Source of the DNA: a virus
Lineage: Duplodnaviria; Caudoviricetes
Reading direction: 5' to 3' (one strand)
Virus record (IMG/VR): IMGVR_UViG_3300042291_001013
DNA: 64,000 nucleotides
Shown here in pieces: positions 5,553 through 45,683 of this stretch. Numbering within the stretch: the stretch's first letter is position 1; each line of letters begins with the position of its first letter. Under the pieces are notes generated by a model that had not been told where the DNA came from, made no database searches, and was given only the letters and a program-made list of their open reading frames with translations. The position numbers and the translations under genes were made by a program.

Positions 5553-6639
5553 GATCATTGTGGATGAATGGGCCGAAGTATGGGACTTGCTAAAGCCCCA
5601 TGCTGATGCTAGTTTTTGGCAGTGGCCCGACACACCTGATTTAGATGCAGTGTACGTTGTGGGCCGTGTGGTGCTACGTGATCGCTGGGCTGACATCACA
5701 GCCTGGGCAGACCAGCATCCAGGACAGGTTGTTTTTTCAAACCCTGCTGAAGGTTCTGAAACCATACTGCTACAGCTTCGACGACTGCGTATTACCGAGC
5801 ACATAATGGATCGGCGCATGGGATTGTTAACGTCGGGCAACTTAGGCATAGATTTGCCTTACTGCCAAACTGACTGTTACTTTTCAAACATTGTTGAATA
5901 CTTAGAGAATTTACGAGCACATGAAAGTGTGCCGCAGATGCGTCACAAAACACACAAGCCCTATAGCTTTCTCATGCTGAATGGTCGATTAAGACCGCAC
6001 CGCAAGGCCATGATTGATGCCTTGCGTGAGCGTGATTTACTGGATCAAGCACTATGGACCAATCTAAATGCCCAGGTTGAAATGGCCTTTACCAGCCAGC
6101 TGGTGACAGCGCAGACCGAGCCCATTAGACTGTTACCGCCCGAATACGAAATTGAACGTGCTCGACCCAACATGAGCACAGCACCTGAACATGTGTTTGC
6201 CAAGCATCATTTGTTTGGCGACACCTGGGGCGATGCCATTGTGAATCCTGATGCGTACATTGACACTTACTTTAGTGTGGTAACCGAAACCATTTATGAC
6301 TATCCGCACACGTTTAGAACTGAAAAGATCTGGAAGCCCATGATAATGGAGCACCCATTTGTTGTGGCAGCCAATGCTGGCTATTATCGTGACCTGCATC
6401 AGGCCGGATTTCAAACGTTCCACAAGTTAATTGACGAGAGTTTTGACAGTATAGCGGACCCACAGCAACGATTGGATCGCATAGTTGACACTGTGGCGGA
6501 TATCTGCTATAATGGTGCTAGTAGTTTCATGGCAGCAGCCGCAGATGTTTGTAAATACAATTATCTACATCTTCGCGAACACAACCGCCGCGAACGACAA
6601 CAGCTTCCTGAGCAATTGGCAAAATACATCAATGAATGA
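5527..6639 (+). CDS. GT10-like TEK-motif protein
   Basis: FSVVTET..FRTEKIWKP..HPF..GFQTF..DESFD. Confidence 0.55.
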   Translation: MHIMLGKRKIIVDEWAEVWDLLKPHADASFWQWPDTPDLDAVYVVGRVVLRDRWADITAWADQHPGQVVFSNPAEGSETILLQLRRLRITEHIMDRRMGLLTSGNLGIDLPYCQTDCYFSNIVEYLENLRAHESVPQMRHKTHKPYSFLMLNGRLRPHRKAMIDALRERDLLDQALWTNLNAQVEMAFTSQLVTAQTEPIRLLPPEYEIERARPNMSTAPEHVFAKHHLFGDTWGDAIVNPDAYIDTYFSVVTETIYDYPHTFRTEKIWKPMIMEHPFVVAANAGYYRDLHQAGFQTFHKLIDESFDSIADPQQRLDRIVDTVADICYNGASSFMAAAADVCKYNYLHLREHNRRERQQLPEQLAKYINE

Positions 6640-7978
6640 TTTGGAATTTAGACAGCAGGTGCTAGACCCTATTAGTTCTAGTTTTTGTGCGGCCAAGTGG
6701 TACAATGCGACCATTTGGTTGGGGTCAGGCATGACAACAAGTTGTCACCATCCCCCGGCCCATTTGGTGGACAAAGATAAAGTCCGTGCCAACCCTAGGC
6801 TCCTGCACAATACTGATCAAAAGAAAGCAGATCGTGCGCAAATGCTTGCTGGAGAGCGCCCAGCAGGTTGCGAGTACTGCTGGAAAATTGAAGACATGGG
6901 ACGCGATGCTGTGAGCGACCGTGTGTACAAAAGCAAAATATACTCCATCAAGGCACTAGATGACGCTAGAAATACACCCGCCAATAACGACGTTAACCTA
7001 CGCACCCTGGAGATTGCTTTTGATCGTACTTGCCAGTTTGCTTGTAGCTATTGCAACCCTGCATTTAGCACAACATGGGTTAATGATATTCGACGTAACG
7101 GAGCCTATACCAACCTTGTTAGTGATGGGCGCAACCATTTCACTCACACTCATGACAGTAGTCAGAAGTACAAAATTACAGAAGCTAATCCATACATTGA
7201 TTCTTTTTTTGCATGGTGGGACTCGGATCTGCATCACACACTGCAAGAGCTCAGAATCACAGGCGGAGAGCCCCTTATGTCAGCCCACACCTGGAGACTC
7301 ATTGACTGGTTTAAAGAGCATAAGGGCAAGAGTACTACACGCTTGGCTATCAATAGTAACCTGGGAACTGATGTCGATATTGACCGTTTACTCTCGAGTA
7401 CTCAGGGCATGCAAATAGACCTGTACACTTCAAACGAAGCACTAGGATCGCAGGCCGAATACATACGCGATGGCTTGGTTTGGGCGGACTGGGTCAACAA
7501 TGTCAATCGCTTGTTAGACAGCAAACAGTTCCGTGGTATACATGTGATGTGTACCATTAATGCCTTGTGCTTGGACAGTTTAGATAGTCTATTAGATTGC
7601 ATACTAAATTGGAAAACCAAATACGGACGTGAAGCCATTAGTTTCACATTGAACATCTTGCGTTTCCCCAGCTTTCAAAGCCCGCTGATACTGCCCACAG
7701 CATCGAAAACACACTATAAAACAGTGTTGGAAACTTGGTTGTTACAAAACAGTCACAGTGAATTCTTGCACGAACACGAGATCAATCATTTACAAAGATT
7801 AATTGATTACTTGGATGTGGTAAAAACTCCGCACTCAGACACATTTGAAATGCCCAAGCTACTGAATGACTTTAAACAGTTCTTCTCACAGTATGATCAA
7901 CGTCGCGGCAAAGACTTTGGCACTGCGTTTCCCAATTTAAAAGACTGGTATGACTCAATACAAATACAACAGCACTGA
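6632..7978 (+). CDS. Radical SAM protein with N-terminal twitch domain
   Basis: CQFACSYC, TGGEP, SCHH..CEYCW; start moved to ATG 6632, overlapping the upstream stop. Confidence 0.9.
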   Translation: MNDLEFRQQVLDPISSSFCAAKWYNATIWLGSGMTTSCHHPPAHLVDKDKVRANPRLLHNTDQKKADRAQMLAGERPAGCEYCWKIEDMGRDAVSDRVYKSKIYSIKALDDARNTPANNDVNLRTLEIAFDRTCQFACSYCNPAFSTTWVNDIRRNGAYTNLVSDGRNHFTHTHDSSQKYKITEANPYIDSFFAWWDSDLHHTLQELRITGGEPLMSAHTWRLIDWFKEHKGKSTTRLAINSNLGTDVDIDRLLSSTQGMQIDLYTSNEALGSQAEYIRDGLVWADWVNNVNRLLDSKQFRGIHVMCTINALCLDSLDSLLDCILNWKTKYGREAISFTLNILRFPSFQSPLILPTASKTHYKTVLETWLLQNSHSEFLHEHEINHLQRLIDYLDVVKTPHSDTFEMPKLLNDFKQFFSQYDQRRGKDFGTAFPNLKDWYDSIQIQQH

Positions 7979-9212
7979 TCTAGTTCGTGCCACAGAGCTA
8001 ACTGACCGTGAAGAATTCTTGTTAAAAGAATCCAAAACCTTCTGCATGTATCCTTGGATTCATTTGCATGCCTATCCCACCGGCGAAGCATATCCTTGTT
8101 GTCATGCTGAAATGAAGCCAGGCATTGTGGGCAACTGTAGAACCAACACACTAGCGGAAATATGGCAGGACCAGCCCATGCAAAAGCTACGTGCAGACAT
8201 GTTGAGCGAAACTCCCCATGCCGCCTGCACACGCTGTTATGAACAAGAAGAGTCGGGCTTTTTTAGTGGCCGTAAGAGTGCAAACAAGCATCATGGACAT
8301 CACATAAAGAAGCTGGCGGAAAATCCTTTTGAAATGACCTATTGGGATATTCGTTTCAGTAACCTATGCAACCTAAAGTGTCGTAGCTGTGGACATATCT
8401 TTAGCTCACAATGGTATCAGGATCAAGCCAAGCTGGCAGGGCCAGAATGGAAAGCTCGCAACACAGTTCTTAACTATGCTGGCCGTACAGAAACAGACAT
8501 ATGGTCGCAACTGGAGCCCCATTTAGACTATGTGGAACAGATATACTTTGCAGGTGGTGAGCCATTATTAATGGAAGAACACTACAGAATCTTGGAAGAA
8601 CTTGTTAGACGCGGCCGCTTTGATGTGCGTTTAATATACAACACCAACTTCACACACACTGATTTAAAGGGCCGTAGTGTATTTGATTACTGGAAGCAGT
8701 TTCGATCAGTAGCAGTGGGTGCTAGCCTAGACGATTCAGGCACCAGAGGCGAATACATACGCAAAGGCACTGACTGGGCTCAAGTAGAACAGAACCGCAG
8801 AGACATGTTGCGTGTGTGTCCCGAAGTGGACTTCTATATCAGCCCTACCCTGAGCATCTTGAATGCTCTGCACTTGCCGGACTTTCATCGTGACTGGGTG
8901 GAAAAGGGCTTGATTCGCGCTCAGGACTTGAATGTAAATATCCTACAAGACCCTGCATACTATAGAATAGACATAGCGCCTGCCGAATACAAAGGCGTGT
9001 TGCTGGCCCGATACCGCGAACATATTGAATGGCTTCGCAATCAAGACCCCTTGCAACGAGCCACAGTGGGTTTTGAAAGCGCCATTACTTTTATGACAGC
9101 CACAGACAATACTCATTTAATAGACTCTTTCTGGCGTAAAACACATGAGCTTGATGCCATAAGAAATGAATCAATATTGGATACAATTCCAGAATTACGA
9201 GCACTAAAATGA
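7950..9212 (+). CDS. Radical SAM protein with N-terminal SPASM/twitch domain
   Basis: CMYPW..PCC..CTRC; CNLKCRSC; AGGEP. Confidence 0.9.
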   Translation: MTQYKYNSTDLVRATELTDREEFLLKESKTFCMYPWIHLHAYPTGEAYPCCHAEMKPGIVGNCRTNTLAEIWQDQPMQKLRADMLSETPHAACTRCYEQEESGFFSGRKSANKHHGHHIKKLAENPFEMTYWDIRFSNLCNLKCRSCGHIFSSQWYQDQAKLAGPEWKARNTVLNYAGRTETDIWSQLEPHLDYVEQIYFAGGEPLLMEEHYRILEELVRRGRFDVRLIYNTNFTHTDLKGRSVFDYWKQFRSVAVGASLDDSGTRGEYIRKGTDWAQVEQNRRDMLRVCPEVDFYISPTLSILNALHLPDFHRDWVEKGLIRAQDLNVNILQDPAYYRIDIAPAEYKGVLLARYREHIEWLRNQDPLQRATVGFESAITFMTATDNTHLIDSFWRKTHELDAIRNESILDTIPELRALK

Positions 9213-10423
9213 ATATACCACATGACAAATTCTGTGTACTGCCCTGGGTGAGCCTAGAAGCCTCACCCATAGGTACTGTGCGCCCTTGCTGTTTGGCCGA
9301 TGATGAAATTGTGGACAATGCAGGCCGCAAGTTTGAATTGAGCACTGCTGACTTTGCAGACATACAAAACAGTGATCACATGCGTGGGTTGCGAGAAGAA
9401 TTTTTGGCAGGCAACAAGCCACAAACATGTAGAAAATGCTGGAATGAAGAACGTGGTGGTCGTACTTCAAAACGCATGCACACCTTGGACAGACTCAAGC
9501 ACAGTATTGCACACACTGAATGGACAGCAGATGCCAAGCCGCTAATGTTCTTGGATCTCAAGCTGGGCAACATCTGCAATTTAAAATGCCGTATCTGCGG
9601 TTCATGGTCGAGTAGCCAGTTTGCCGCAGAAGAAATTGCACAGTTGCCCCCTGAAGAAAAGAAAAAGTCACACGCTTATACTATGCTACGAGCCGGGGCT
9701 TGGCCCAGAGAGAACACTCAGTTCTGGCAGCAGATTGATTCAGTTGTAAATGACATACGCTATATAGAGTTTACTGGTGGTGAGCCGTTCATGATTGAAG
9801 AACACTTTGCAATGTTGCAGGGCATAGTGGATCGTGGTATTGCGCATCAAGTGGAAATACACTACAACACAAATGGCACACAGTATCCTGAGGCAGCAGA
9901 GGCAATATGGCGGCATTTTAAAACAGTAGAAATAGCATTCAGCTTGGACGACGTGGGTGAGCGCTTTGAATATCAACGCACAAACGCTGTGTGGGCAGAT
10001 GTGTGTGCCAACCTAGATCGTTTCCGTGACTTAAAAGAAATCCACCCCAATATTGAACTGCAAGTATGCACCACAGTGAATGTGTTTAACGTGCGTTACC
10101 TTGGGGACATTGCAGCCTGGTTAGAACGCAATCGCAAAAGTTTTACGTTTGTGTACTGGAATATGATGCACGATGCTTGGTACTTCAGTATCGCTTGCTT
10201 GCCTGACAGGGTCAAACGGGCCATTACTGAATATCTCAATGGTGTTGACACCATTTACAGATCAGAATTTGATCGCATAAGAGACTTTATGAATTCAGGT
10301 GCGTCAACTGATGGGTTCATGACTAGAATGAAAATAGCAGATCTAGACCGCAAACGCAATCAGGATCTACAGGCTGTAGCGCCAGAGTTAGCTGAGCTGA
10401 TTGAGTACAATAAAAATGCCTAA
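9209..10423 (+). CDS. Radical SAM protein with N-terminal SPASM/twitch domain
   Basis: CVLPW..PCC..CRKCW; CNLKCRIC; TGGEP. Confidence 0.9.
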   Translation: MNIPHDKFCVLPWVSLEASPIGTVRPCCLADDEIVDNAGRKFELSTADFADIQNSDHMRGLREEFLAGNKPQTCRKCWNEERGGRTSKRMHTLDRLKHSIAHTEWTADAKPLMFLDLKLGNICNLKCRICGSWSSSQFAAEEIAQLPPEEKKKSHAYTMLRAGAWPRENTQFWQQIDSVVNDIRYIEFTGGEPFMIEEHFAMLQGIVDRGIAHQVEIHYNTNGTQYPEAAEAIWRHFKTVEIAFSLDDVGERFEYQRTNAVWADVCANLDRFRDLKEIHPNIELQVCTTVNVFNVRYLGDIAAWLERNRKSFTFVYWNMMHDAWYFSIACLPDRVKRAITEYLNGVDTIYRSEFDRIRDFMNSGASTDGFMTRMKIADLDRKRNQDLQAVAPELAELIEYNKNA

Positions 10424-11294
10424 GTTAGTTTATGAATCTCCAGGATCGTTAAATTCACAATGGATTCAGCCCATTGTGGAACAATACTTTACGGTAGAGC
10501 CATACCGGGCTGATCAATATTATGATCGTCACACATTGCTAGTGCAAAATCAACCTGCCATAACACCTGCTGGACAACGCATTCAAGATCAGGGCGGCAC
10601 AATAGTATTTGATAATTTATGGGAACAGCCTTGTTCATGGACCGGTGGGTATAGACTGGAACACGCCAATTGGTTCTGGTACAACGAAAGTCTGCACTAT
10701 CAACATCTAGGTTACGATCAGTATGAACCTGTTCGCAGTTATGACTATTTGGCACTGATTCCCATGCGTAAAATACACCCACACAGAGACTGGTTGTTGC
10801 GGGCCCTTGAGCCCTGGCTAGATCAATGCGTTTGGAGTTACTTGGAACGCGGACGCAGTCTGCCCAATGATACAGACACTTCTGATCTAAAAGGACAACG
10901 TTACATGAATCCCGAGTGGTACAACCGCACTTGTTTTAGCATAGTGGCAGAAAGCACTGTGAGTGCCAGGGAAATTTTTATCACTGAAAAGACATTCAAA
11001 CCCATGGCATTTCAACATCCGTTTGTGGTGTGGGCGCAGGCAGGTGTGCTGAAAAGACTACAAGATCTAGGATTTGAAACGTTTAAAAACTTATTTGATC
11101 AAGCATATGATTCTGAGCCAAATGATCGCCGGCGCTTGGCTCTGCTGGTTGATGCAGTAAATGATTTCAAGCCAATAGAGTACAGCAAAGAAACTGTGCA
11201 AAAATTACAGCACAATCACAATCATTTCTTCAGCAACACCGTTGCCCAGCGTGTGCAAAAAGAAATAGTAGAACCATTAACAGCACTGATATGA
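10416..11294 (+). CDS. GT10-like TEK-motif protein
   Basis: FSIVAES..FITEKTFKP..HPF..GFETF..DQAYD; start taken at ATG 10416. Confidence 0.55.
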   Translation: MPKLVYESPGSLNSQWIQPIVEQYFTVEPYRADQYYDRHTLLVQNQPAITPAGQRIQDQGGTIVFDNLWEQPCSWTGGYRLEHANWFWYNESLHYQHLGYDQYEPVRSYDYLALIPMRKIHPHRDWLLRALEPWLDQCVWSYLERGRSLPNDTDTSDLKGQRYMNPEWYNRTCFSIVAESTVSAREIFITEKTFKPMAFQHPFVVWAQAGVLKRLQDLGFETFKNLFDQAYDSEPNDRRRLALLVDAVNDFKPIEYSKETVQKLQHNHNHFFSNTVAQRVQKEIVEPLTALI

Positions 11295-38257: not shown

Positions 38258-38332
38258 TGGTAGGCCTTGAGAGGATCGAACTCCCACCGCTTGTTTCGAA
38301 GACAAGCATGATATCCATTTCACCAAAGGCCT
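38258..38332 (-). tRNA. tRNA-Arg(UCG)
   Basis: Cloverleaf; loop CTTCGAA; CCA encoded. Confidence 0.92.
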
Positions 38333-38335
38333 ATG

Positions 38336-38409
38336 TGGTGCTCTCAACAAGAATTGAACTTGTGTTTCATCCTTACCAAGGATGTGTAATGCCATTATAC
38401 TATGAGAGC
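38336..38409 (-). tRNA. tRNA-Thr(GGU)
   Basis: Loop TTGGTAA; CCA. Confidence 0.92.
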
Positions 38410-38413
38410 TAAG

Positions 38414-38487
38414 TGGAGCAGGATACCAGAATCGAACTGGTGACTGGACCTTGGCAAGGTTCTATTTTACCCCTAAACTAATCCTGC
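38414..38487 (-). tRNA. tRNA-Gly(GCC)
   Basis: Loop TTGCCAA; U73-CCA. Confidence 0.9.
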
Positions 38488-38500
38488 AATTTTTTACTTA

Positions 38501-38974
38501 TTAGGCTGCTCGTAGACTTTTGAATCTATCTGCCGCGTATGATGCCGCAAATGCTTCTGGCTTCACAAACGGGATCACATTGCATGTTCCTTTAATGTAG
38601 CCTACAGCTTGTGAAATCACACAGCTTGATCCGTGCATTTCGTTTGGGTTGATGTCCAAGTGAACTTCAACTTCACGGCCTTCTAGCACATCGGCCAGCT
38701 TCAAATACAATTCGCTAACCTTGTATACTTCTGTCATGAGTCGCATGGCCGGCTTGCTTGGTTTTTGATCGTAAACACGTTCTCGGTGTACTTCGCCAAA
38801 CAGTTTGCAACCGTTGTTGCCGTTGATGTGTACCACAATGGCCAGCACATAGTCAGCATACCAAGCACCGTCAATTTTGATTCGTTCCGAGTCGCAGCCA
38901 AGATAGATTCGAGTTTCGGGTGTTTGGGCCCGGATAAACTCTGCTACTTGATTGATGTCTAGTTTTTTCATCAT
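38501..38974 (-). CDS. RNase H-like YkuK (DUF458) family protein
   Basis: IYLGCDS, EVHLDIN, FAASYAAD; start MMKKL at 38974. Confidence 0.8.
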   Translation of the reverse strand: MMKKLDINQVAEFIRAQTPETRIYLGCDSERIKIDGAWYADYVLAIVVHINGNNGCKLFGEVHRERVYDQKPSKPAMRLMTEVYKVSELYLKLADVLEGREVEVHLDINPNEMHGSSCVISQAVGYIKGTCNVIPFVKPEAFAASYAADRFKSLRAA

Positions 38975-39014
38975 TGTCTTTCTATTTAACTCGGGAACCG
39001 TTACAGTTTTATTA

Positions 39015-39094
39015 TGGTACCCCTGCTCAGATTCGAACTGAGAACATATACTCCCTTTTGAGGAGAGTGACTTTACCAATTTGTCCACAGGGGC
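39015..39094 (-). tRNA. tRNA-Leu(CAA), short variable region
   Basis: Loop CTCAAAA; 8-nt variable region. Confidence 0.85.
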
Positions 39095-39109
39095 ACAGCG
39101 TTTGAAATT

Positions 39110-39186
39110 TGGTGCCCCAGGGGAGACTCGAACTCCCAAAATTTGGCTTCTAAGACCAACACGTATACCAATTCCGTCACCGGGGC
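39110..39186 (-). tRNA. tRNA-Leu(UAG), short variable loop
   Basis: Loop CTTAGAA; 5-nt variable loop. Confidence 0.88.
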
Positions 39187-39197
39187 TTAAATACAAT

Positions 39198-39413
39198 ATG
39201 CACGAAAAGGAAAAAATCTATGTTAAAGATCTCTACAGATTGTTCTGTACAGAACTTTACACAACTACCGCAAGTTGGGTAACCGCAAAACACTTTGTGG
39301 CCGACCCTTTGCTGGATCTGAAAAAAGAATTTATTCCTGATGCTACATTGGTACCAGGAGACGGGATCGAACCGCCCACACCTTGTGCTTCAAACAAGTG
39401 CTCTACCAACTGA
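39198..39413 (+). CDS. Possible antisense micro-ORF MHEKEKIY...
   Basis: TAAATA 4 nt before ATG; 3' part overlaps tRNA-Phe in antisense. Confidence 0.35.
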   Translation: MHEKEKIYVKDLYRLFCTELYTTTASWVTAKHFVADPLLDLKKEFIPDATLVPGDGIEPPTPCASNKCSTN

Positions 39414-39424
39414 GCTATCCTGGC
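39349..39424 (-). tRNA. tRNA-Phe(GAA)
   Basis: Loop TTGAAGC. Confidence 0.93.
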
Positions 39425-39430
39425 AATATT

Positions 39431-39505
39431 TGGTACCTGGTCACGGTTTCGAACCGCGGACCCTCTCCGTGTAAAGGAGACGCTCTACCCCTGAGCTAAC
39501 CAGGC
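39431..39505 (-). tRNA. tRNA-Val(UAC)
   Basis: Loop TTTACAC. Confidence 0.93.
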
Positions 39506-39514
39506 AAACTATTT

Positions 39515-39606
39515 TGGCGGAAGACGGAGGAGTCGAACCCCATCCCTGTTAAGAGAACCTGGTTTTCAAGGCCAGTCGCGGGACCAACCCCACTGCATCA
39601 TCTTCC
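39515..39606 (-). tRNA. tRNA-Ser(UGA), probable 8/4 fold
   Basis: Loop CTTGAAA; GGAAGATG/CGTCTTCC acceptor; 4-bp T-stem; long variable arm; G73. Confidence 0.85.
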
Positions 39607-39611
39607 ATATA

Positions 39612-39688
39612 TGGTCGGAATGACACGGTTCGAACGTGCGACCACTGCGTCCCAAACGCAGAGCTCTACCAGGCTGAGCTACATTCCG
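39612..39688 (-). tRNA. tRNA-Pro(UGG)
   Basis: Loop TTTGGGA; C1-G72. Confidence 0.93.
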
Positions 39689-39696
39689 AATTAAAC

Positions 39697-39915
39697 TTAC
39701 TTTAACTTGGGATCAATTGACTTATCAACTTCGTGCGGTTCTGCAAACCTAGGAGTTGGCTGATCCCAATACGCTGGAAAGATCTTCCAGCCAAAACTTT
39801 TCCAGTAACGATGAATGATGTTGTTTATCACAACAACCCCAGCCACGATTACAATTACACCTGTCATTGTTAAAACACTGCCGGCTAAAAATACTGCCGC
39901 TTGATCCATATCCAT
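39697..39915 (-). CDS. Small single-pass membrane protein
   Basis: Hydrophobic N-terminal helix. Confidence 0.65.
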   Translation of the reverse strand: MDMDQAAVFLAGSVLTMTGVIVIVAGVVVINNIIHRYWKSFGWKIFPAYWDQPTPRFAEPHEVDKSIDPKLK

Positions 39916-39939
39916 ATTTGTAAATCCTTTGGAGTTGTG

Positions 39940-40557
39940 TTATTTCAGCATCAATTCCACAGGATCAATAATGGGCATGGTTGCCAGCATGATCCTGGGA
40001 TATTTTGCATCAGGCCCCGGCATAACCCTGTGAGGGATATAACTGTTGAAAACAATAGGATGCTCATGCATGTTATACCTCAGCAAACAAGGATACTGAT
40101 CTTGTACAGTGTGATGTAACACAGAAAAATTATACTGTTCTGTGCCTGTGTATGGGTTTGTCATAACCGGGAGCCGATTCATGGCTTCCTTGGGAATATC
40201 ATACCACTCTGTATAAACATCCTCAGTGTTGTAGATTGGAAAGTTTATTTTGAAGTTCATGGGCGGTGCATCGTTGTGCAACACAACCCCATCGGTCATA
40301 CCTTCTGTCAGCAATCCCACTGTGATTTCTTTGATAGGCAGGTTGACTCGAAACATAAATCGCAACAAATTTGGACACACCTTGGCCATTTGTTTGTAAT
40401 CTATCAGATGCCAGAACTTTTTTTCTTGTTTTTCGTTTAGAAAATCAGTGTTATCTACAACCCAGTTCATTATCTCTTCTTTGATTTGATCAAGGTTGTC
40501 ACACTCAAGTTCGTGTATACATTTGAAACGACTTTGGTCTGGGATATAATCAATCAT
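39940..40557 (-). CDS. Putative 2OG-Fe(II)/cupin oxygenase within the tRNA array
   Basis: LHND..PHRV..RIML; TAAATA 4 nt before ATG. Confidence 0.55.
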   Translation of the reverse strand: MIDYIPDQSRFKCIHELECDNLDQIKEEIMNWVVDNTDFLNEKQEKKFWHLIDYKQMAKVCPNLLRFMFRVNLPIKEITVGLLTEGMTDGVVLHNDAPPMNFKINFPIYNTEDVYTEWYDIPKEAMNRLPVMTNPYTGTEQYNFSVLHHTVQDQYPCLLRYNMHEHPIVFNSYIPHRVMPGPDAKYPRIMLATMPIIDPVELMLK

Positions 40558-40582
40558 GATATATTTACTACCTACAATTATT

Positions 40583-40656
40583 TGGAGCAGGGTAGGGGAA
40601 TCGAACCCCTCGCTTTAGCTTGGAAGGCTAAGGTATTACCACTATACGAACCCTGC
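40583..40656 (-). tRNA. tRNA-Gly(UCC)
   Basis: Loop CTTCCAA. Confidence 0.94.
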
Positions 40657-40668
40657 GTTGAATTACTT

Positions 40669-40697
40669 ATTATACAGCATCTTAGCAATACTGTAAA
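40669..40697 (-). promoter_or_regulatory. Promoter TTTACA-17-TATAAT
   Basis: Direct match upstream of tRNA-Gly(UCC). Confidence 0.75.
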
Positions 40698-40704
40698 GCA
40701 ATTT

Positions 40705-40779
40705 TGGTAGCCATGGACAATTTCGAAATGTCGACCTAACGCTTATCAAGCGTTTGCTCTTCCTCTGAGCTACACGGCT
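40705..40779 (-). tRNA. tRNA-Ile(GAU)
   Basis: Loop TTGATAA. Confidence 0.88.
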
Positions 40780-40788
40780 AAATATTGA

Positions 40789-40962
40789 ATGCACATTGAC
40801 GTCTATCTACAAAAACAGTTGTACTGCACCATTGAACTAAGTCAGCCCGGTTACAATGTGCCTGCTATCTTGGATCAAATCCAAAGTGATCGCGAAGCTG
40901 GCAACTTGACCTGGGTACAGTGGGATCAGCCGCTTGACTTTGAAGTCAAATACTTTGAATAA
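40789..40962 (+). CDS. 57-aa antisense-oriented protein MHIDVYLQKQ...
   Basis: Fills an inter-tRNA spacer exactly; TAAATA 4 nt before ATG. Confidence 0.6.
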   Translation: MHIDVYLQKQLYCTIELSQPGYNVPAILDQIQSDREAGNLTWVQWDQPLDFEVKYFE

Positions 40963-40964
40963 CT

Positions 40965-41038
40965 TGGCACGGGAACTAGGGCTCGAACCTAGAATGACAG
41001 AGTCAAAGTCTGTAGTGTTACCATTACACTATTCCCGA
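40965..41038 (-). tRNA. tRNA-Gln(UUG)
   Basis: Loop CTTTGAC; 1-72 mismatch; G73. Confidence 0.92.
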
Positions 41039-41046
41039 ACAAAACT

Positions 41047-41121
41047 TGGTGGATGTAAGTAGATTCGAACTACTGACCTGCCGCGTATGAAGCGAATGCA
41101 CTACCGCTGTGCTATACATCC
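41047..41121 (-). tRNA. tRNA-Met(CAU), probably elongator
   Basis: Loop TTCATAC; G1-C72; Met versus Ile2 is an inference. Confidence 0.75.
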
Positions 41122-41124
41122 GAT

Positions 41125-41199
41125 TGGGGTATCCAATGAGAATTGAACTCATGATAGCGGAATCACAATCCGCGGTTTTACCACTAAACTATGGACACC
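41125..41199 (-). tRNA. tRNA-His(GUG)
   Basis: Loop TTGTGAT; G-1 opposite C73. Confidence 0.93.
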
Positions 41200-41200
41200 A

Positions 41201-41314
41201 TATAGGAGCACTCTCAACAGCAGGCCTAGGAGGCAATCTGGTTGCTGAAACTTTTGCATCTGCAGATACTAGGCTTCTTCTCCCGCGTTGACTTACGCCA
41301 AGAATGCTTTTATA
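41201..41314 (-). ncRNA. Stem-enclosed structured spacer RNA
   Basis: 12/14-bp closing stem; GNRA (GUAA) hairpin; GCCTAG/CTAGGC helix. Confidence 0.5.
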
Positions 41315-41388
41315 TGGTAGGGGTGTTCGGGAACGATCCGAATTTTACTGGTTAAAAGCCAGTTACTTCACCTTAAAGTTTCACCCCC
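41315..41388 (-). tRNA. tRNA-Lys(UUU), non-canonical core
   Basis: Loop CTTTTAA; A8/U14 and A54/U58. Confidence 0.85.
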
Positions 41389-41417
41389 ATAGGTTTATCA
41401 CTCTTGTCACTAGTCAT
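41373..41417 (-). CDS. 14-aa mini-ORF MTSDKSDKPMGVKL overlapping the tRNA-Lys 5' end
   Basis: AAGGAG 7 nt upstream of ATG. Confidence 0.4.
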   Translation of the reverse strand: MTSDKSDKPMGVKL

Positions 41418-41439
41418 GACAGATCTCCTTTTAAAAAAT

Positions 41440-41516
41440 TGGTACCACCTGAGAGATTCAAACTCCCGACCCCTAAGTTCGTAGCCTAGTGCTCTGTTCA
41501 GCTGAGCTAAGGTGGT
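41440..41516 (-). tRNA. tRNA-Arg(ACG)
   Basis: Loop CTACGAA; T-loop TTTGAAT. Confidence 0.88.
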
Positions 41517-41520
41517 GTGT

Positions 41521-41596
41521 TGGTGCCCCTTGTCCGACTCGAACAGACCACCTACTGCTTACAAAACAGTTGCTCTACCGGATGAGCTAAAGGGGC
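41521..41596 (-). tRNA. tRNA-Thr(UGU)
   Basis: Loop TTTGTAA. Confidence 0.92.
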
Positions 41597-41603
41597 AAAT
41601 TGT

Positions 41604-41693
41604 TGGCGGTGCGAAAGAGACTCGAACTCTTAAAGCGGCTTTCACCACTCGACGGATTAGCAATCCGCTCCAATACCATTATGGGACCGCACC
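41604..41693 (-). tRNA. tRNA-Ser(GCU)
   Basis: Loop TTGCTAA; long variable arm; 7/5 fold. Confidence 0.92.
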
Positions 41694-41700
41694 TCAAATT

Positions 41701-41776
41701 TGGCTCCCCAGCGTGGGATCGAACCACGGACACCTTGATTAACAGTCAAGTGCAACTACCGCTGTGCTACTAGGGA
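41701..41776 (-). tRNA. tRNA-Asn(GUU)
   Basis: Loop CTGTTAA. Confidence 0.93.
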
Positions 41777-41786
41777 ATAATCTACT

Positions 41787-41808
41787 TAGTAGGCACTCAT
41801 GCCTACTA
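41787..41808. other. Perfect 9-bp spacer hairpin
   Basis: TAGTAGGCA-CTCA-TGCCTACTA. Confidence 0.7.
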
Positions 41809-41817
41809 TCAAAAACT

Positions 41818-41894
41818 TGGCGACCCGGGAAGGATTTGAACCTCCGACATTTGGTTTTGGAGACCAACGTTCTGCCAGACTGAACTACCGAGCC
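41818..41894 (-). tRNA. tRNA-Trp(CCA)
   Basis: Loop CTCCAAA; G73. Confidence 0.92.
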
Positions 41895-41899
41895 ATATT

Positions 41900-41974
41900 T
41901 GGTGGAGGATAAGAGAATTGAACTCTTTTGACCTACGTGCAAGGCAGGCATAATACCCAGTATATGAATCCCCC
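41900..41974 (-). tRNA. tRNA-Ala(UGC)
   Basis: Loop CTTGCAC; G3-U70. Confidence 0.9.
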
Positions 41975-42004
41975 AAATTTTCAAACACACTGTTTCCAAT
42001 GTGT

Positions 42005-42060
42005 GTATTAAAGCACTCTAAAATACTTAGGCTGCCTGTTCGTAAAGAATGCTTTAATAC
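42005..42060 (-). ncRNA. 15-bp processing-type stem in spacer
   Basis: GTATTAAAGCATTCT pairs with AGAGTGCTTTAATAC. Confidence 0.6.
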
Positions 42061-42156
42061 GCTGTAATTTTTTATCTCACAAAAGAGACTCTATCCTACA
42101 GGCCGCCCATTTGTAGTTTAGAGTGATACCGGCTCTCGTTGCCATTGCACTAAATG

Positions 42157-42185
42157 AAAAACCCTGGAGTGTTTAGTTCCAGGGT
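42157..42185 (-). terminator. Intrinsic terminator of attenuator B
   Basis: ACCCTGGA-9nt-TCCAGGGT followed by TTTT. Confidence 0.85.
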
Positions 42186-42208
42186 CTTGTTGAATTTGTC
42201 AGTTACTT

Positions 42209-42343
42209 TTATGCGTAACCTGCACCTTCAATAGACCCCGACATCCCTAGAATACTATTCACGCGACCAGAGGCGTGTGACCAGGTAAATGTTGCCTGGA
42301 GCATCGCGGGTTTTGTCGACAGTGAACGGAATGTTGTTTTCAT
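42209..42343 (-). CDS. 44-aa leader peptide B (MKTTFRSLST...GAGYA)
   Basis: Promoter and AGGA RBS upstream; stop sits in the loop of the putative antiterminator. Confidence 0.65.
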   Translation of the reverse strand: MKTTFRSLSTKPAMLQATFTWSHASGRVNSILGMSGSIEGAGYA

Positions 42344-42353
42344 CTTAAGTCCT

Positions 42354-42382
42354 ATTGTAGTTTATTTATGATTGTTTGTCAA
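42354..42382 (-). promoter_or_regulatory. Sigma70 promoter TTGACA-17-TACAAT with embedded TAAATA
   Basis: Direct sequence match. Confidence 0.85.
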
Positions 42383-42398
42383 TCACAAATGGTAAAAT

Positions 42399-42473
42399 TG
42401 GTTGCGGGTGAAGGATTCGAACCTCCGTCTTCTAGGTTATGAGCCTAGTAGTCTACCACTGACGTAACCCGCG
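42399..42473 (-). tRNA. tRNA-fMet(CAU)-like
   Basis: C1-A72 mismatch; loop CTCATAA; only two G-C pairs next to the loop. Confidence 0.85.
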
Positions 42474-42491
42474 TTAACTTTTATTTATATC

Positions 42492-42567
42492 TGGAGTAGG
42501 TGACAGGACTCGAACCTGCATTTTACGGATTTGCAATCCGGCGCCTAACCATTCGGCACACACCTAC
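42492..42567 (-). tRNA. tRNA-Cys(GCA)
   Basis: Loop TTGCAAA; U73. Confidence 0.88.
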
Positions 42568-42577
42568 ACTAATTGAA

Positions 42578-42790
42578 TTTGCAAGTAGTTGCTCCATCGT
42601 TATAGCAACCATTCACCCGTGTAATAAACTCGAGCGGGACTCGGTACGTCACTTGGGATACTAGTCCAGTTTGTCTCCGTTACAGACACCACCCTTGCGA
42701 GTGGTTGGGAGTTGAACCCATCACCTTCTACTGTTTTGGTCCTTCGAAGAAACCTAGACAGCATGACATTCTCTTGCTGACACTTACAAA
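42578..42790 (-). ncRNA. Unassigned ~210-nt structured RNA with a T-arm-like hairpin
   Basis: 10-bp terminal stem TTTGTAAGTG/TACTTGCAAA; TGGG-TTCAACT-CCCA; several internal hairpins. Confidence 0.65.
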
Positions 42791-42793
42791 ACT

Positions 42794-42868
42794 TGGCGAT
42801 GCATGGGAGAATCGAACTCCCGTCTCCGGATAGACAATCCGGGATAATGACCATTATATGAATGCACC
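42794..42868 (-). tRNA. tRNA-Asp(GUC), canonical core
   Basis: Loop TTGTCTA; G73. Confidence 0.9.
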
Positions 42869-42875
42869 TTAAACT

Positions 42876-42950
42876 TGGCGGTCCCAGGGGGTAACGATCC
42901 CCCTCTTCAGCAGTGACAGTGCTGTGTGCGTCCATGAACACCTTGAGACC
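42876..42950 (-). tRNA. tRNA-Asp(GUC), non-canonical core
   Basis: Loop CTGTCAC; A8/U14 and A54/U58. Confidence 0.82.
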
Positions 42951-42957
42951 AATTTTT

Positions 42958-43100
42958 ATAGTTAAGCACCGAGAATGCCAATTTAGGAGTCCGGTGCTTC
43001 TGTTCCAAAGCCGATGCAGTTATATCAGGATCAGTCGCCGGCCGCTGTGACCCGAATAGTGTAAGCGTCCTTACACGATACCTTATCGGTGCTTAACTAT
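42958..43100 (-). ncRNA. Stem-enclosed structured RNA
   Basis: Perfect 15-bp inverted repeat ATAGTTAAGCACCGA; inner GTGTAAG/CTTACAC hairpin. Confidence 0.6.
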
Positions 43101-43110
43101 AAAAACAAAA

Positions 43111-43310
43111 ATGCTCTGCATCCCCCGGCGGTAATTGTAGTACATCAAGATACGACGCTATCGTACCCATCACACGTACCTTCCACCCGCTTCCCGACAG
43201 GGACCGTTATCGCATTGCTAGCGGCCTTTGGGTTCAAAGACTACCACCCGTAGCTGTCACGCTACTTCTCATCGTGTGGGTCACACTATCCGGAGACACC
43301 CGGAACGTTC
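43111..43310 (-). ncRNA. Candidate GC-rich structured RNA directly after tRNA-Tyr
   Basis: Hairpins TCCGG/CCGGA, GTAGC/GCTAC, CTTTG/CAAAG, TACGA/TCGTA; no plausible ORF. Confidence 0.5.
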
Positions 43311-43311
43311 T

Positions 43312-43397
43312 TGGTGGAGATGGATGGATTTGAACCACCGCGCTTTTTACAGAACAGATTTACAGTCTGCCGCCTTCAACCACTCGGCCACATCTCC
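43312..43397 (-). tRNA. tRNA-Tyr(GUA)
   Basis: Loop CTGTAAA; long variable arm. Confidence 0.93.
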
Positions 43398-43405
43398 AAA
43401 AAAGG

Positions 43406-43468
43406 GAGAGCTACGGTTGCAGGACCTAGTGCCTCTTGCGAGGGAAGTATCCAGGCGATGTAGCTCTC
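43406..43468 (-). ncRNA. 63-nt rod-like spacer RNA
   Basis: GAGAGCTAC/GTAGCTCTC, CCTGG/CTAGG, CCTC-GCAA-GAGG. Confidence 0.5.
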
Positions 43469-43472
43469 AAAC

Positions 43473-43547
43473 TGGTAGAGCGTAGGAGAGTCGAACTCCT
43501 CTTATGCGGATGAAAACCGCATGTCCTAACCGATAGACGAACGCTCC
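43473..43547 (-). tRNA. tRNA-Glu(UUC)
   Basis: Loop TTTTCAT. Confidence 0.92.
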
Positions 43548-43553
43548 ATAGTT

Positions 43554-43813
43554 CACTATATGAAAACACATTAGGATGTTTGATAGAAGTAACAGTTTTG
43601 AACCTGCCCTACTGTGTCGTCCACAGATTTGTCTATCAACCACATTACGGGCCAACTAGATCCGGCGCGCTTCGCTCTTTCGAGTCTGCTTTCGTGTAGT
43701 CCAAGTAGAGCCTAGCCGTCACTAGGATTTAGTTCTCTACTTGGGTACCTACCGGAGTTGGTAACCCAATGCGTTTACATATAGTGCCCAGAACTGAATC
43801 TGGGTACACTATA
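43554..43813 (-). ncRNA. Unassigned ~230-260-nt multi-helix RNA
   Basis: 18/19-bp closing stem; 10-bp CCAAGTAGAG helix; GAAA tetraloop; T-loop-like GTTCAAAA. Confidence 0.7.
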
Positions 43814-43881
43814 CAAAATTAAATTTTTAACGAACTCCAAAGTAGCTTCGATCAACTGTCTTTGTTTTCTAACTTGTATCT

Positions 43882-43910
43882 AGTATAACATCTTGTGCTA
43901 TTCTGGTCAA
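43882..43910 (-). promoter_or_regulatory. Sigma70 promoter TTGACC-17-TATACT
   Basis: Direct match upstream of the ncRNA/tRNA block. Confidence 0.8.
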
Positions 43911-43920
43911 CTTGTTTTGT

Positions 43921-43945
43921 AAAAGCCCCGCCTTGTTGCAGGGTC
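43921..43945 (-). terminator. Second terminator-like hairpin below attenuator A
   Basis: CCCTGC/GCGGGG followed by CTTTT; also preceded by AAAGAC. Confidence 0.55.
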
Positions 43946-44021
43946 TTTACAAACTTTGCTGTGTTACTTCCTAACTAGTCTCTAGTATAACATGATTCCA
44001 ATTCTTTGCCTAACACATAAA

Positions 44022-44045
44022 GAAAAACCCTGCTCGGTGCAGGGT
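44022..44045 (-). terminator. Intrinsic terminator of attenuator A
   Basis: ACCCTGC-ACCGA-GCAGGGT followed by TTTT. Confidence 0.85.
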
Positions 44046-44069
44046 CTTTGTAGATGTAGTACGAAATAC

Positions 44070-44156
44070 TTACACACAAAGACCCCGAGATGGATCATAC
44101 TCACGCTCGCATGTGAATGCCATTGAATTGAGGATGATTGCGAAAGTTTGTTTCAT
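44070..44156 (-). CDS. 28-aa leaderless leader peptide A (MKQTFAIILNSMAFTCEREYDPSRGLCV)
   Basis: ATG 6 nt after TATAAT; last codons carry the anti-terminator strand. Confidence 0.65.
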   Translation of the reverse strand: MKQTFAIILNSMAFTCEREYDPSRGLCV

Positions 44157-44162
44157 AAGTGT

Positions 44163-44191
44163 ATTATATATGACAGCAGACAAAAAGTCTA
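44163..44191 (-). promoter_or_regulatory. Sigma70 promoter TAGACT-17-TATAAT
   Basis: Direct match; predicted +1 at the A of the leader ATG. Confidence 0.75.
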
Positions 44192-44204
44192 CTGTTTTGG
44201 TAAA

Positions 44205-44545
44205 ATTGGATAGGTTTATTCTGTTACGAGGAAAACCTATCAAAACCCTAGGCAGTGTTTAGGCTGCCAATGCGAACTGTTCGTCGTTTGCGTTTACGTT
44301 TTTTGCTTCTACGACCGGGAAACCCCAACCCTACGGCTTTCACATTGCCGAGCTGTCCACTCTGTTACTCTTTGCCCTGTCGAAACCATGGCAGGCCCAT
44401 TATAAAACATACTCAAACGGGTCTTTTCGCCTATCCCCGTGCCGTGGCTTGCAAGGATAGGGCTGAATATGCTTTATGGTGGACCTGGCGGGAGTCGAAC
44501 CCGCGTCCAGAACACTTTTCTCTTTGCTTCATACAGCAATAACCT
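44205..44545 (-). ncRNA. ssrA: Circularly permuted (two-piece) tmRNA, tag ANDEQFALAA
   Basis: Acceptor piece ending GGTTCGACTCCCGCCAGGTCCACCA (44477) precedes the 5' piece GGGCCTG (44398); G3-U70; tag at 44259-44291. Confidence 0.95.
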
Positions 44546-44547
44546 AT

Positions 44548-44576
44548 ATTATATTAGGCTTTCTGAATTTTGTCAA
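44548..44576 (-). promoter_or_regulatory. Consensus promoter TTGACA-17-TATAAT for tmRNA
   Basis: Perfect consensus. Confidence 0.9.
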
Positions 44577-45498
44577 CCAAACCGGCACTGAATGTGTTGG
44601 CAAATTGATCATATACTTTGGCAGTTACCTTGCGAAAAGTTTGCTCATCAGCATCGCTAAATTTAATAACACGAATGCCATCTTGCTCACAACGTGCCTT
44701 GGTAGGCTCAACTTCGGCCACAGCCACAGCACGCTCAAAACGTCCAGCTTCTAATGCCGCATCTTTCATGACCTGTTGCAGGTCTGCAGACAAGCCAGCC
44801 AAGAAGTTCTTGTTCACAATGATGTTAGTCAACAACAAGCGATGGTTGGGTTCCAAGATAGATTCAGCAACTTCGTTTTGTTGGCAAGCATAGATACGTG
44901 GCCATGAGCTTTCGCCGCCATCAATAGCACCATCTCGGATGCCTTCGGCCACACGTTCAACGTCCATCACAACTGGATCAGCGCCCAGGGCAGTCCATGT
45001 AGCGGCTGCAACTGGTGAATTTGACACACGCACTTTAACGCCGGCCATTTCACTTAGACTTGCAACGTCACGATTCATGGGCATGTTCATAAAGCCACCT
45101 GAGTAGGTAAATGCCATGCCTTTGATGTTGCTGTTCTTGGCGTAACCATCCAGCAAACTCTCGCCAATTTCACTTTCAAACACACGTGCCGCGTGATCGT
45201 GATCACGGAACAAGAAAGGCAAATCAAGTGCGTCAAGATCATTGTTGTACTTGCTGAGTACATAAGTGTACATCTGGCTCATTTCAATAGCGCCAGTGTC
45301 CATAACATCCAACAGGTTATGTTTGGTGATTGGTTCACCATGATTGTACTTGCTGGTATACTCGCTTAGAGTCAGCACTTCAATCTCAAACTGTCCTGGT
45401 GCACGGGCTTCTACTACTTCAGTAAATTTTTCAGCGGCACGAATAAAAATGTCAATAGGTTCATGGGCTAATACCCATTTGATGTGGATAGGTTTCAT
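44554..45498 (-). CDS. TRAP transporter substrate-binding protein (DctP family), no visible signal peptide
   Basis: LDLPFLFRD, GVKVRV, LGADPV, IDGGE; start may be 45528. Confidence 0.85.
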   Translation of the reverse strand: MKPIHIKWVLAHEPIDIFIRAAEKFTEVVEARAPGQFEIEVLTLSEYTSKYNHGEPITKHNLLDVMDTGAIEMSQMYTYVLSKYNNDLDALDLPFLFRDHDHAARVFESEIGESLLDGYAKNSNIKGMAFTYSGGFMNMPMNRDVASLSEMAGVKVRVSNSPVAAATWTALGADPVVMDVERVAEGIRDGAIDGGESSWPRIYACQQNEVAESILEPNHRLLLTNIIVNKNFLAGLSADLQQVMKDAALEAGRFERAVAVAEVEPTKARCEQDGIRVIKFSDADEQTFRKVTAKVYDQFANTFSAGLVDKIQKA

Positions 45499-45683
45499 AA
45501 TATTTTTTCCTTGAGTAATAGCTTGCATGTGTATGCTACGGTGGGCGTTCTAGGTATTGTGCTAGTAAAGGGCATTGCCCAAGCGTCCATTATTTCCGAC
45601 GTCAGCCCCTGCTGGCGTTGCTAGAATTATTTAGCTTTTGCAAGCGTCTTGTATAGCATTTTTAAGGCATTAGTGCGCAATTG

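Follow-up and report, generated by a model that had tools for sequence, protein, structure and literature searches.

Phage T4 carries two non-coding RNAs without an assigned function inside its tRNA cluster, rnaC (species 1) and rnaD (species 2), and both are annotated as stable and as co-transcribed and processed with the tRNAs. Bacterial Y RNAs of the YrlA type, some of which are phage-encoded, are ∼100–200 nt in length and combine a long stem of paired ends with a tRNA-like module containing a T-loop. Giant phages with their own tRNA sets and a tmRNA are abundant in lakes, and to our knowledge nearly all attention to them has so far been directed at their proteins. Two further classes of structured RNA found in metagenomes, GOLLD and ROOL, occur in phages and prophages, in many cases close to tRNA islands, and their function is unknown (PMC12286853).

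We examined a 64,000-nucleotide stretch of DNA from an uncultured phage (IMG/VR record IMGVR_UViG_3300042291_001013; ‘the window’) that contains 28 tRNA genes, of which a minus-strand block (38258–43547) holds 26, together with a permuted (two-piece) tmRNA (44171–44590) and proteins of phage families. An initial annotation, made from the sequence, had proposed a multi-helix RNA of 230–260 nt at positions 43554–43813.

Location and transcription of the RNA gene

The RNA gene is located on the minus strand, with the tmRNA on one side and tRNA-Glu(UUC) (43473–43547, minus strand) on the other. This tRNA is probably co-transcribed with the RNA and begins 6 nt past its closing stem. The promoter to which the RNA had been assigned (43882–43910, minus strand) is a good sigma-70-type site, with the sequence TTGACC, a 17 nt spacer and TG-n-TATACT (10 of 12 matches, with the TG upstream of the −10 hexamer), and transcription is predicted to start from it near position 43875.

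The same RNA is found at other loci (see below) in two kinds of setting, being transcribed either from a sigma-70-type promoter of its own or by virtue of its place within a tRNA/tmRNA operon. Promoters of the former kind (TTGACA-17-TACAAT or TATAAT) are located ∼20–30 nt upstream of the RNA, and many such members are remote from tRNA genes, with a further promoter on their downstream side (loci L015, L016, L026, L034 and L038). In the inspected tRNA arrays that carry the RNA (types A and B, defined below) tRNA-Glu adjoins it. At L017 the RNA comes after tRNA-Glu rather than before. No protein neighbor is constant: the best cluster is present in 34 of 123 loci, which fits an RNA that acts in trans. 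Scans of 20 large ORFs of the window against Pfam and PHROG identified no RNA-processing enzyme.

Homologs and distribution

A similarly built RNA located between a tmRNA and tRNA-Glu at a second locus (L003), recognized by eye, has short motifs in common with that of the window. A search pattern built from these common motifs (GGTTACC-4-CC-2-TAG-8-GTAGAG) retrieved 15 viral and ∼65 metagenome loci, corresponding to 54 unique cores that fall into four subtypes (A–D). A second pattern, centered on the 3′ motif (GCGRCGG ... GGCAGTAATGA), added ∼55 further viral loci, many of which are without GUAGAG. Homologous loci now number about 140–148 in lake and viral metagenomes, and 87 unique full-length sequences were analyzed. 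They make up the homolog collection that the initial annotation had named as a check, with covariation visible both within type A and between subtypes. In the 12 loci fetched via the neighboring protein (window 44554–45528), the RNA was not detected by blastn or nhmmer, and the diverged copy at L003 was apparent only by eye.

Five near-complete phage records (280–347 kb; CheckV completeness 79–100%, at least 92% in four of them) each carry exactly one copy, so that all near-complete genomes of the lineage that were testable here have the gene once; one of the IMG/VR records of 280–347 kb that carry the RNA has terminal repeats. There are no paralogs inside the window, and the exact 21-mer of the T-loop hairpin described below gave no matches.

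Searches beyond these metagenomes were negative. Using blastn, the window RNA and a type-C member returned only tRNA-Glu or chance matches among 50,697 phage records, and by the same comparison no cultured phage carries the RNA. Among 185,579 prokaryote species, each represented by one genome, the first pattern retrieved no true copy; its 17 matches there correspond to coding sequence or to the acceptor/D-arm of ordinary tRNAs, the latter stemming from the pattern rather than reflecting homology. Another chance match was to a marine tandem repeat of 78 bp (L097). The window RNA matched none of the 4227 models of Rfam 15, either at the gathering threshold or at E-values up to 10, and no family was matched at gathering or permissive thresholds by homologs of types A–D or by those of the 345-kb genomes; single chance matches were to ohsC (E = 1.5, in the leader) and mir-558 (E = 1.7). 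The earlier statement that the RNA matches no recognized class is supported with respect to Rfam, for the window and for every subtype. The literature that we searched contains no description of such an RNA, and as far as Rfam 15, the phage records and this full-text literature extend, the family is undescribed.

Secondary structure of the type-A RNA

The segment 43548–43830 (minus strand) folds at −96.5 kcal/mol, compared to −67.9 ± 4.6 kcal/mol for 200 shuffled sequences, none of which folded as well (z = −6.17). This value, together with the covariation described below, identifies a genuine non-coding RNA of about the size first proposed. All of the elements listed in the initial annotation are present on the minus strand where it had placed them. 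In a model of 32 type-A sequences, 94.4% of cells are paired and 20 pairs have changed on both sides; none of 500 shuffled controls reached the observed values, and slid controls were 30–40% paired.

The RNA is closed by a 22-bp stem. Its inner part, P1, is formed by 43765–43777 (TAAACGCATTGGG) and 43563–43575, and seven of ten P1 pairs have changed on both sides; the 3′ strand of the complete stem, from folding, extends over 43554–43575 (CCTAATGTGTTTT inner, CATATAGTG outer), and the stem contains one mismatch, U43777 against U43563. Past an invariant GG-UUA, the 5′ strand of helix P2 (43752–43761) consists of P2a (CCAAC, 43757–43761) and P2b (TCCGG, 43752–43756); it pairs with a 3′ strand (43652–43665) in which CCGGA (43661–43665) and GTTGG (43652–43656) are separated by a TCTA bulge.

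This long-range helix takes the place of two local hairpins in the 5′ domain. The initial annotation had paired GGGT..TACC with GGTA..ACCC, but the same nucleotides covary at long range across subtypes. The TACC/GGTA pairing is broken in two sequences by a G-to-A change in CCGG that the long-range partner compensates with a C-to-U change, and a third type-A sequence displays a G·U intermediate at the same position of P2; GGGT/ACCC is unpaired in 7 of 32 type-A sequences. A local GCCGG/TTGGC hairpin, which also appears in the energy minimum, is likewise unsupported, covariation favoring P2.

The remaining helices of the earlier structure are retained. P3 (43701–43744) comprises a 10-bp stem (43735–43744/43701–43710; CCAAGTAGAG/CTCTACTTGG) and an inner 5-bp stem (CCTAG/CTAGG; 43722–43726/43711–43715) capped by a UGACGG loop, and is 100% paired with compensatory changes: AU to UA in nine and CG to UA in one of the 32 sequences in the former, and three pairs changed on both sides in six sequences in the latter. 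It is followed by a joining strand that carries a conserved CAYGAA motif (43685–43700; ACTACACGAAAGCAGA in the window) and by P4 (CTC-GAAA-GAG, 43675–43684), the variable hairpin of the family, which is replaced by CCC/GGG and by longer hairpins among type-A members. On the 3′ side of P2, a second joining strand (CCC-GUAAUG-UGG, 43640–43651), in which GUAAUG (43643–43648) is invariant in one alignment of the family (A3), leads into the type-A 3′ domain (43580–43639). The 8-bp stem of this domain (43632–43639/43580–43587; TTGATAGA/TCTATCAA) has double changes at two pairs, and it encloses a CTGTG-GACGA-CACAG hairpin (43612–43626), with CG replaced by UA in 10 of the 32 sequences, and a T-loop-like hairpin (GCAG-GUUCAAAA-CUGU, 43592–43607). 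The latter, annotated earlier as CAG-GTTCAAAA-CTG, is indeed present in the window but belongs to one subtype rather than to the family; since it is invariant in all 32 type-A sequences, covariation is silent about it.

A conserved core with two nested junctions

A global MAFFT alignment of 89 sequences was too gappy for RNAalifold to return a structure, and family-wide pairing was therefore counted from anchors. RNAalifold applied to each subtype recovers the same long-range P2 helix. P2 varies by compensation between subtypes (CCAAC(U)/(A)GUUGG, CCAGAC/GUCUGG, CCUACA/UGUAGG and CCGAAU/AUUCGG, with CCUAGA/UCUAGG in place of the third in one member), and across the 87 unique sequences positions 2–5 of P2a each display two to three Watson–Crick pair types and are paired in 84–94% of cases. 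P2b (GC/AU and UG/GC/UA/CG) and P1 covary as well.

By these comparisons, the core of the family is a pair of nested three-way junctions with near-invariant joining strands (GG-UUA-CC, UAGG, YAUGAA, GCGRCGG, GGCAGUAAUGA and GUUCC). P1, with an invariant innermost GG/CC and a variable extension, ranges from 4 to 22 bp, and in many members is only 4 bp long. J1/2 (UUA) connects it to P2, a helix of ∼10 bp with a 3′ bulge, which encloses the first three-way junction (P3, P4 and the strands UAGG, YAUGAA and GCGRCGG). On the 3′ side of P2 follow the strand GGCAGUAAUGA, a variable 3′ domain on the second three-way junction, (G)UUCC and the return strand of P1. Within CAYGAA, which reads YAUGAA in the wider family, the positions C, A, G, A and A are invariant across subtypes in alignment A3.

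The peripheral elements differ. The GRCGG motif of the P3 loop recurs in the first 54 unique members, and both P3 and its loop vary in the wider family. P4 may be CCC/GGG, carry a GCAA loop, be expanded to a 22-nt hairpin or (elsewhere) to as much as ∼80 nt, or be absent (L028), and the 3′ domains of types B, C and D are unlike that of type A, which alone has the T-loop-like hairpin.

Our working definition of the family is GG-UUA-CC, P2a, CCR, UAGG ... YAUGAA ... GCGRCGG, a bulge, P2a′ and GGCAGUAAUG ... (G)UUCC or CAUCC, all closed by P1. Every element is present in the window RNA, with CCGG for GCGRCGG, GGCCCGUAAUG and ACAUCC as type-A variants. The core is kept to the nucleotide across subtypes whose helices have fully drifted, and lake metatranscriptomes contain the RNA. 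Comparable conservation has previously marked ribozymes, riboswitches and the RNAs of central ribonucleoproteins.

Probable mature ends and the leader of the precursor

Fourteen DNA runs labelled as lake water metagenome contain 63–90% of the sampled words of a 1-kb stretch around the RNA, and six RNA runs contain small shares. The core (43569–43777) is represented by contigs in four RNA libraries of lake or marine origin, and in several studies contigs stop near 43569–43577 and near 43767–43777; with the joints described next, the former range becomes 43563–43577. Two of the libraries contain same-strand, head-to-tail joints: in library X19 position 43776 is joined to 43569 with six letters between them, and in X20 position 43777 is joined to 43563 with one letter between them. 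Read in the sense of the RNA, both joints link the 3′ end to the 5′ end within the 22-bp closing stem, at its single U·U mismatch. No permuted or tandem copy is present in ∼250 DNA loci (∼148 of which carry the family RNA), so the joints arise at the level of RNA or cDNA. They correspond either to a circular RNA or to template switching by reverse transcriptase between ends held together by P1; on either reading they define a mature species of ∼209–215 nt (43563–43777, minus strand).

Word depth in X20 is ∼900–11,000 on the contigs over 43572–43775, compared to ∼100 on the leader (43776–43843). Contig depth is a poor measure and no proof of abundance, and we take this contrast only as a hint suggestive of a stable species. 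Two stretches without RNA-library cover (44014–44149 in all four runs and 43844–43945 in X19 and X20) are compatible with an RNA origin of the contigs, a hole being no proof. A contig of another library, X17, joins 43746 to 43667 in the RNA sense and lacks precisely the 78 nt that comprise P3, P4 and the joining strand between them; it represents either a jump of reverse transcriptase across P2 or a natural minimal variant.

These joints raise the possibility that the functional form is a covalently closed circle, excised by cuts in the closing stem and ligated at its ends, such that P1 becomes a capped hairpin and the molecule resists exonucleases. Two independent libraries contain the 3′-to-5′ joint in the same orientation, the only contig of X19 on the RNA is the permuted one (record 18, 234 nt), the joint is absent from DNA, and four of the five near-complete genomes encode a protein of the RNA_ligase family (PF09414). 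That ligase, however, seals nicks in duplexes rather than the ends of a stem; none of the five genomes encodes RtcB, nor did any match a T4 Rnl1-type ligase in a search run without a positive control. The contigs are moreover assemblies, and a handful of chimeric reads is enough for an assembler to bridge two dead ends of a de Bruijn graph. Both joints hold an extra untemplated letter, as is seen when reverse transcriptase switches templates, the depth of the X20 joint is only ∼1–4% of that of the core, and the X17 joint is a typical reverse-transcriptase jump across a stem, which indicates that such artifacts occur in this data set. For these last three reasons we regard a true circle as doubtful. 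An extended version, that a protein-free circle is cut from the tRNA/tmRNA operon, is very stable and abundant, and has a core that either is catalytic or sequesters a signaling molecule or host factor, is in our estimate unlikely. If true, this extended version would be a new class of RNA in bacterial viruses and a new bacterial route to circular RNA, one without introns and without RtcB.

Upstream of the probable mature 5′ end (43776/43777), the outer 5′ strand of the closing stem (CACTATATG, 43778–43786) pairs with 43554–43562. It is preceded in the precursor by a leader (43787–43814, minus strand) that is predicted by folding to contain a 5′ arm (GTATAGTG, 43807–43814) and a CCCAGA/TCTGGG hairpin (43799–43804/43787–43792), and CACTATAT is contested by this arm and the 3′ flank. 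The initial annotation had described a mutually exclusive switch, in which CACTATA pairs with either the 5′ arm or the outer 3′ strand of the closing stem (43554–43562). The complementarity is real, but with ends near 43777 and 43563 the ‘alternative 5′ fold’ falls within the trimmed leader and bears at most on processing rather than on the mature RNA. A leader hairpin that abuts or overlaps the outer closing stem is also present at L020 and in a 345-kb genome (L249), and because it recurs in these other subfamilies it may serve folding or processing of the precursor.

Other elements near the family RNA

Several additional elements were observed at these loci. Between the family RNA and tRNA-Glu at L110 (525–612, minus strand) is an ∼85-nt element with the same closing-stem bracket (TTATATGTAAACA ... 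GTGTGTTTTCATATAGTG), and the bracket here looks like a reusable excision module. At several type-C loci a conserved short motif (GGCAUUCA, a variable hairpin and CUGAUGUAAG), which has no Rfam match, is found 0–90 nt past the RNA (for example at ∼11440–11480 of L029, and at L088, L092, L093, L101 and L080). Upstream of type-A members that have their own promoter is a conserved non-coding stretch (..AAAAAGGGTYG.AGCCAAGGGAYACGAAG.GAGTTTGKAGACTC.GCC..; L022, L026:1326–1430, L033, L034 and L038), which may be another small RNA or the end of an upstream transcript.

In the window itself, a second promoter-like site (44012–43984, minus strand, in the region 43915–44012; 9 of 12 matches with a TG) is followed after ∼40 nt by a G+C-rich hairpin and a U-run (gtaaagaccctgcaacaaggcggggctttt), giving a possible transcript of ∼60 nt on the upstream side of the promoter of the family RNA. 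A stem-closed element of ∼210 nt with a canonical T-arm (42578–42790, minus strand) is unrelated to the family RNA; it has a recognizable relative at L004 (10715–10960) and is thus a second conserved non-coding RNA family of these phages. Finally, ARAGORN reports a tRNA-Ile(UAU) of 92 nt in three related phages (L003:10306–10397, L004:11310–11401 and L017:4932–5023); this unusual length suggests an insertion or a long extra arm.

Proposed processing and possible functions

The reading that we prefer, and to which we give about even odds, is that the RNA is a stable, processed, trans-acting structured RNA and the founder of an uncatalogued family of giant freshwater phages. In this model host RNA polymerase would transcribe the RNA early, on one transcript with tRNA-Glu and the tRNAs that follow. 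A nuclease specific for double strands, for which host RNase III is the obvious candidate, would cut in the 22-bp closing stem near the U·U mismatch, and RNase P would free tRNA-Glu. The 12–13 bp of stem left after cutting would protect the ends. The invariant double-junction core might then provide a folded binding surface, its target being either a small molecule or a component (protein or RNA) of the tRNA or translation machinery of the host, with the variable arms serving only to stabilize or tune it. An RNase III domain is encoded in none of the five phage genomes, and the nuclease, if it is RNase III, must therefore be that of the host. A cut by RNase III leaves a 2-nt 3′ overhang, and the ends that we infer are unlike this in being blunt or staggered by one nucleotide. 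No co-varying gene points to a partner. The trans-acting model is further weakened because joining strands are conserved just as strongly in typical ribozymes and riboswitch aptamers, and because a circular active form could explain the head-to-tail joints.

The pattern of invariant joining strands and variable peripheral helices is the usual one for a catalytic core, and the RNA could accordingly be a ribozyme that excises itself from the tRNA precursor or acts in trans on the phage tRNA and tmRNA precursors. Its link to tRNA arrays and to a two-piece tmRNA, whose intervening segment itself needs excision, its ends at a defined place in P1 and the lack of a phage-encoded RNase III all agree with such an activity. 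However, the RNA is unlike any ribozyme family of Rfam 15 (including RNase P, group I and II introns and the small self-cleavers) and its flanks rebuild neither a tRNA nor a reading frame. The cleavage sites are located 12–13 bp from the core in plain, unconserved duplex, which a protein nuclease specific for double-stranded RNA fits better, and in the many members with a 4-bp P1 and their own promoter there is nothing to excise. We consider a ribozyme to be improbable.

The large tRNA sets of giant phages are commonly regarded as a countermeasure to host defenses that target tRNAs. The RNA might in that context be a tRNA-like decoy, either resembling a Y RNA or acting as bait for anticodon nucleases and other tRNA-directed defenses, with the type-A 3′ domain mimicking a tRNA elbow. 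It sits inside tRNA arrays, both of its ends form the closing stem as in Y RNAs, and the T-loop-like GUUCAAAA loop is found beside a GACGR loop. Against this, that domain is limited to type A, the loop has 8 rather than 7 nt on a stem of 3–4 bp, and the RNA lacks both an acceptor end and CCA. A YrlA RNA is expected to share its genome with a gene for a Ro60/Rsr (TROVE) protein, as a rule next to it; a search that matched control genomes found no TROVE domain (PF05731) in the five phage records (completeness 92% or more in four), although a Ro protein may be encoded by the host. Nor was there an Rfam match at E-values up to 10, Y-RNA-like RNAs included if they are in Rfam 15. A decoy is in our view improbable, slightly more so than a ribozyme.

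The RNA could also act in cis on the tRNA operon, as a module for processing or insulation or by controlling read-through into tRNA-Glu and the subsequent tRNAs in the manner of a riboswitch or attenuator. Such a role would agree with the position of the RNA in the window and in the inspected type-A and type-B arrays, first after the promoter and directly before tRNA-Glu, and with the alternative pairing in its leader. We reject it as very improbable because numerous members are located away from tRNAs under a promoter of their own, and what comes next there is a further promoter and not a controlled gene; it is further disfavored by the reversed gene order at L017, by the lack of a terminator after the RNA in the window and by RNA-library contigs that cover the RNA itself.

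The locus offers a concrete case for how phages excise cargo other than tRNAs from tRNA operons, and for a possible circular form. With ∼90 distinct sequences, a structure supported by covariation and defined ends, the family is ready to be modeled by covariance, synthesized and tested directly.

Comparison with known RNA classes

Several classes could be set aside by their hallmarks. RNase P RNA is recognized by a P4 pseudoknot flanked by CR-I (GAGGAAAGUCC) and CR-V (ACAGAA..GGCUUA); on reading, neither motif was seen in the window RNA or its homologs, and there was no match at E-values up to 10 in Rfam, which should include the RNase P models. The family RNA is not a group I or II intron, since joining its flanks would yield a loop-less palindrome instead of a tRNA or reading frame, and many members have their own promoter and no Rfam intron model was matched. 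For a retron msr/msd, the required reverse transcriptase (PF00078) is absent from the five records, and tRNA genes or small unrelated ORFs are found downstream of the RNA. 6S RNA imitates an open promoter by means of a large bubble at the center of a long, irregular duplex; the family RNA has two nested three-way junctions rather than a rod, and no Rfam match. Three resemblances were dropped as untestable or at the level of chance: complementarity of GACGR loops to U8–C12 of tRNA-Glu, similarity of the P2 strands to helix 45 of 16S rRNA, and similarity of GGCAGUAAUGAC to a stretch of 4.5S RNA.

Relative to Y RNAs, the tRNA-like module is not conserved in the family, being represented by the T-loop-like hairpin of type A, and Y RNAs have no counterpart to the conserved core (P2 and the two junctions). 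The closing stem resembles the brackets at which RNase III processes rRNA and phage early transcripts, in that the ends of the product lie inside a near-perfect 22-bp duplex, and differs from them in the inferred blunt or one-nucleotide-staggered ends and in the many members whose P1 is 4 bp long.

GOLLD and ROOL RNAs are characterized by lengths of more than 500 nt and a multi-pseudoknot architecture, and no Rfam model, theirs included, was matched at permissive thresholds. ROOL is larger than the family RNA, and many GOLLD RNAs exceed 800 nt (PMC12286853). The link to phages and to tRNA islands is held in common with these classes, whereas size (∼200–215 nt here) and architecture differ.

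With T4 rnaC and rnaD the family RNA has in common that it is a phage non-coding RNA placed inside a tRNA cluster. No likeness in sequence was seen on reading, and the blastn comparison with phage records returned only tRNA-Glu. The T4 RNAs are shorter (139 and 119 nt, compared to ∼215 nt), and rnaC ends in a tRNA-like T-arm and acceptor that the family RNA does not have.
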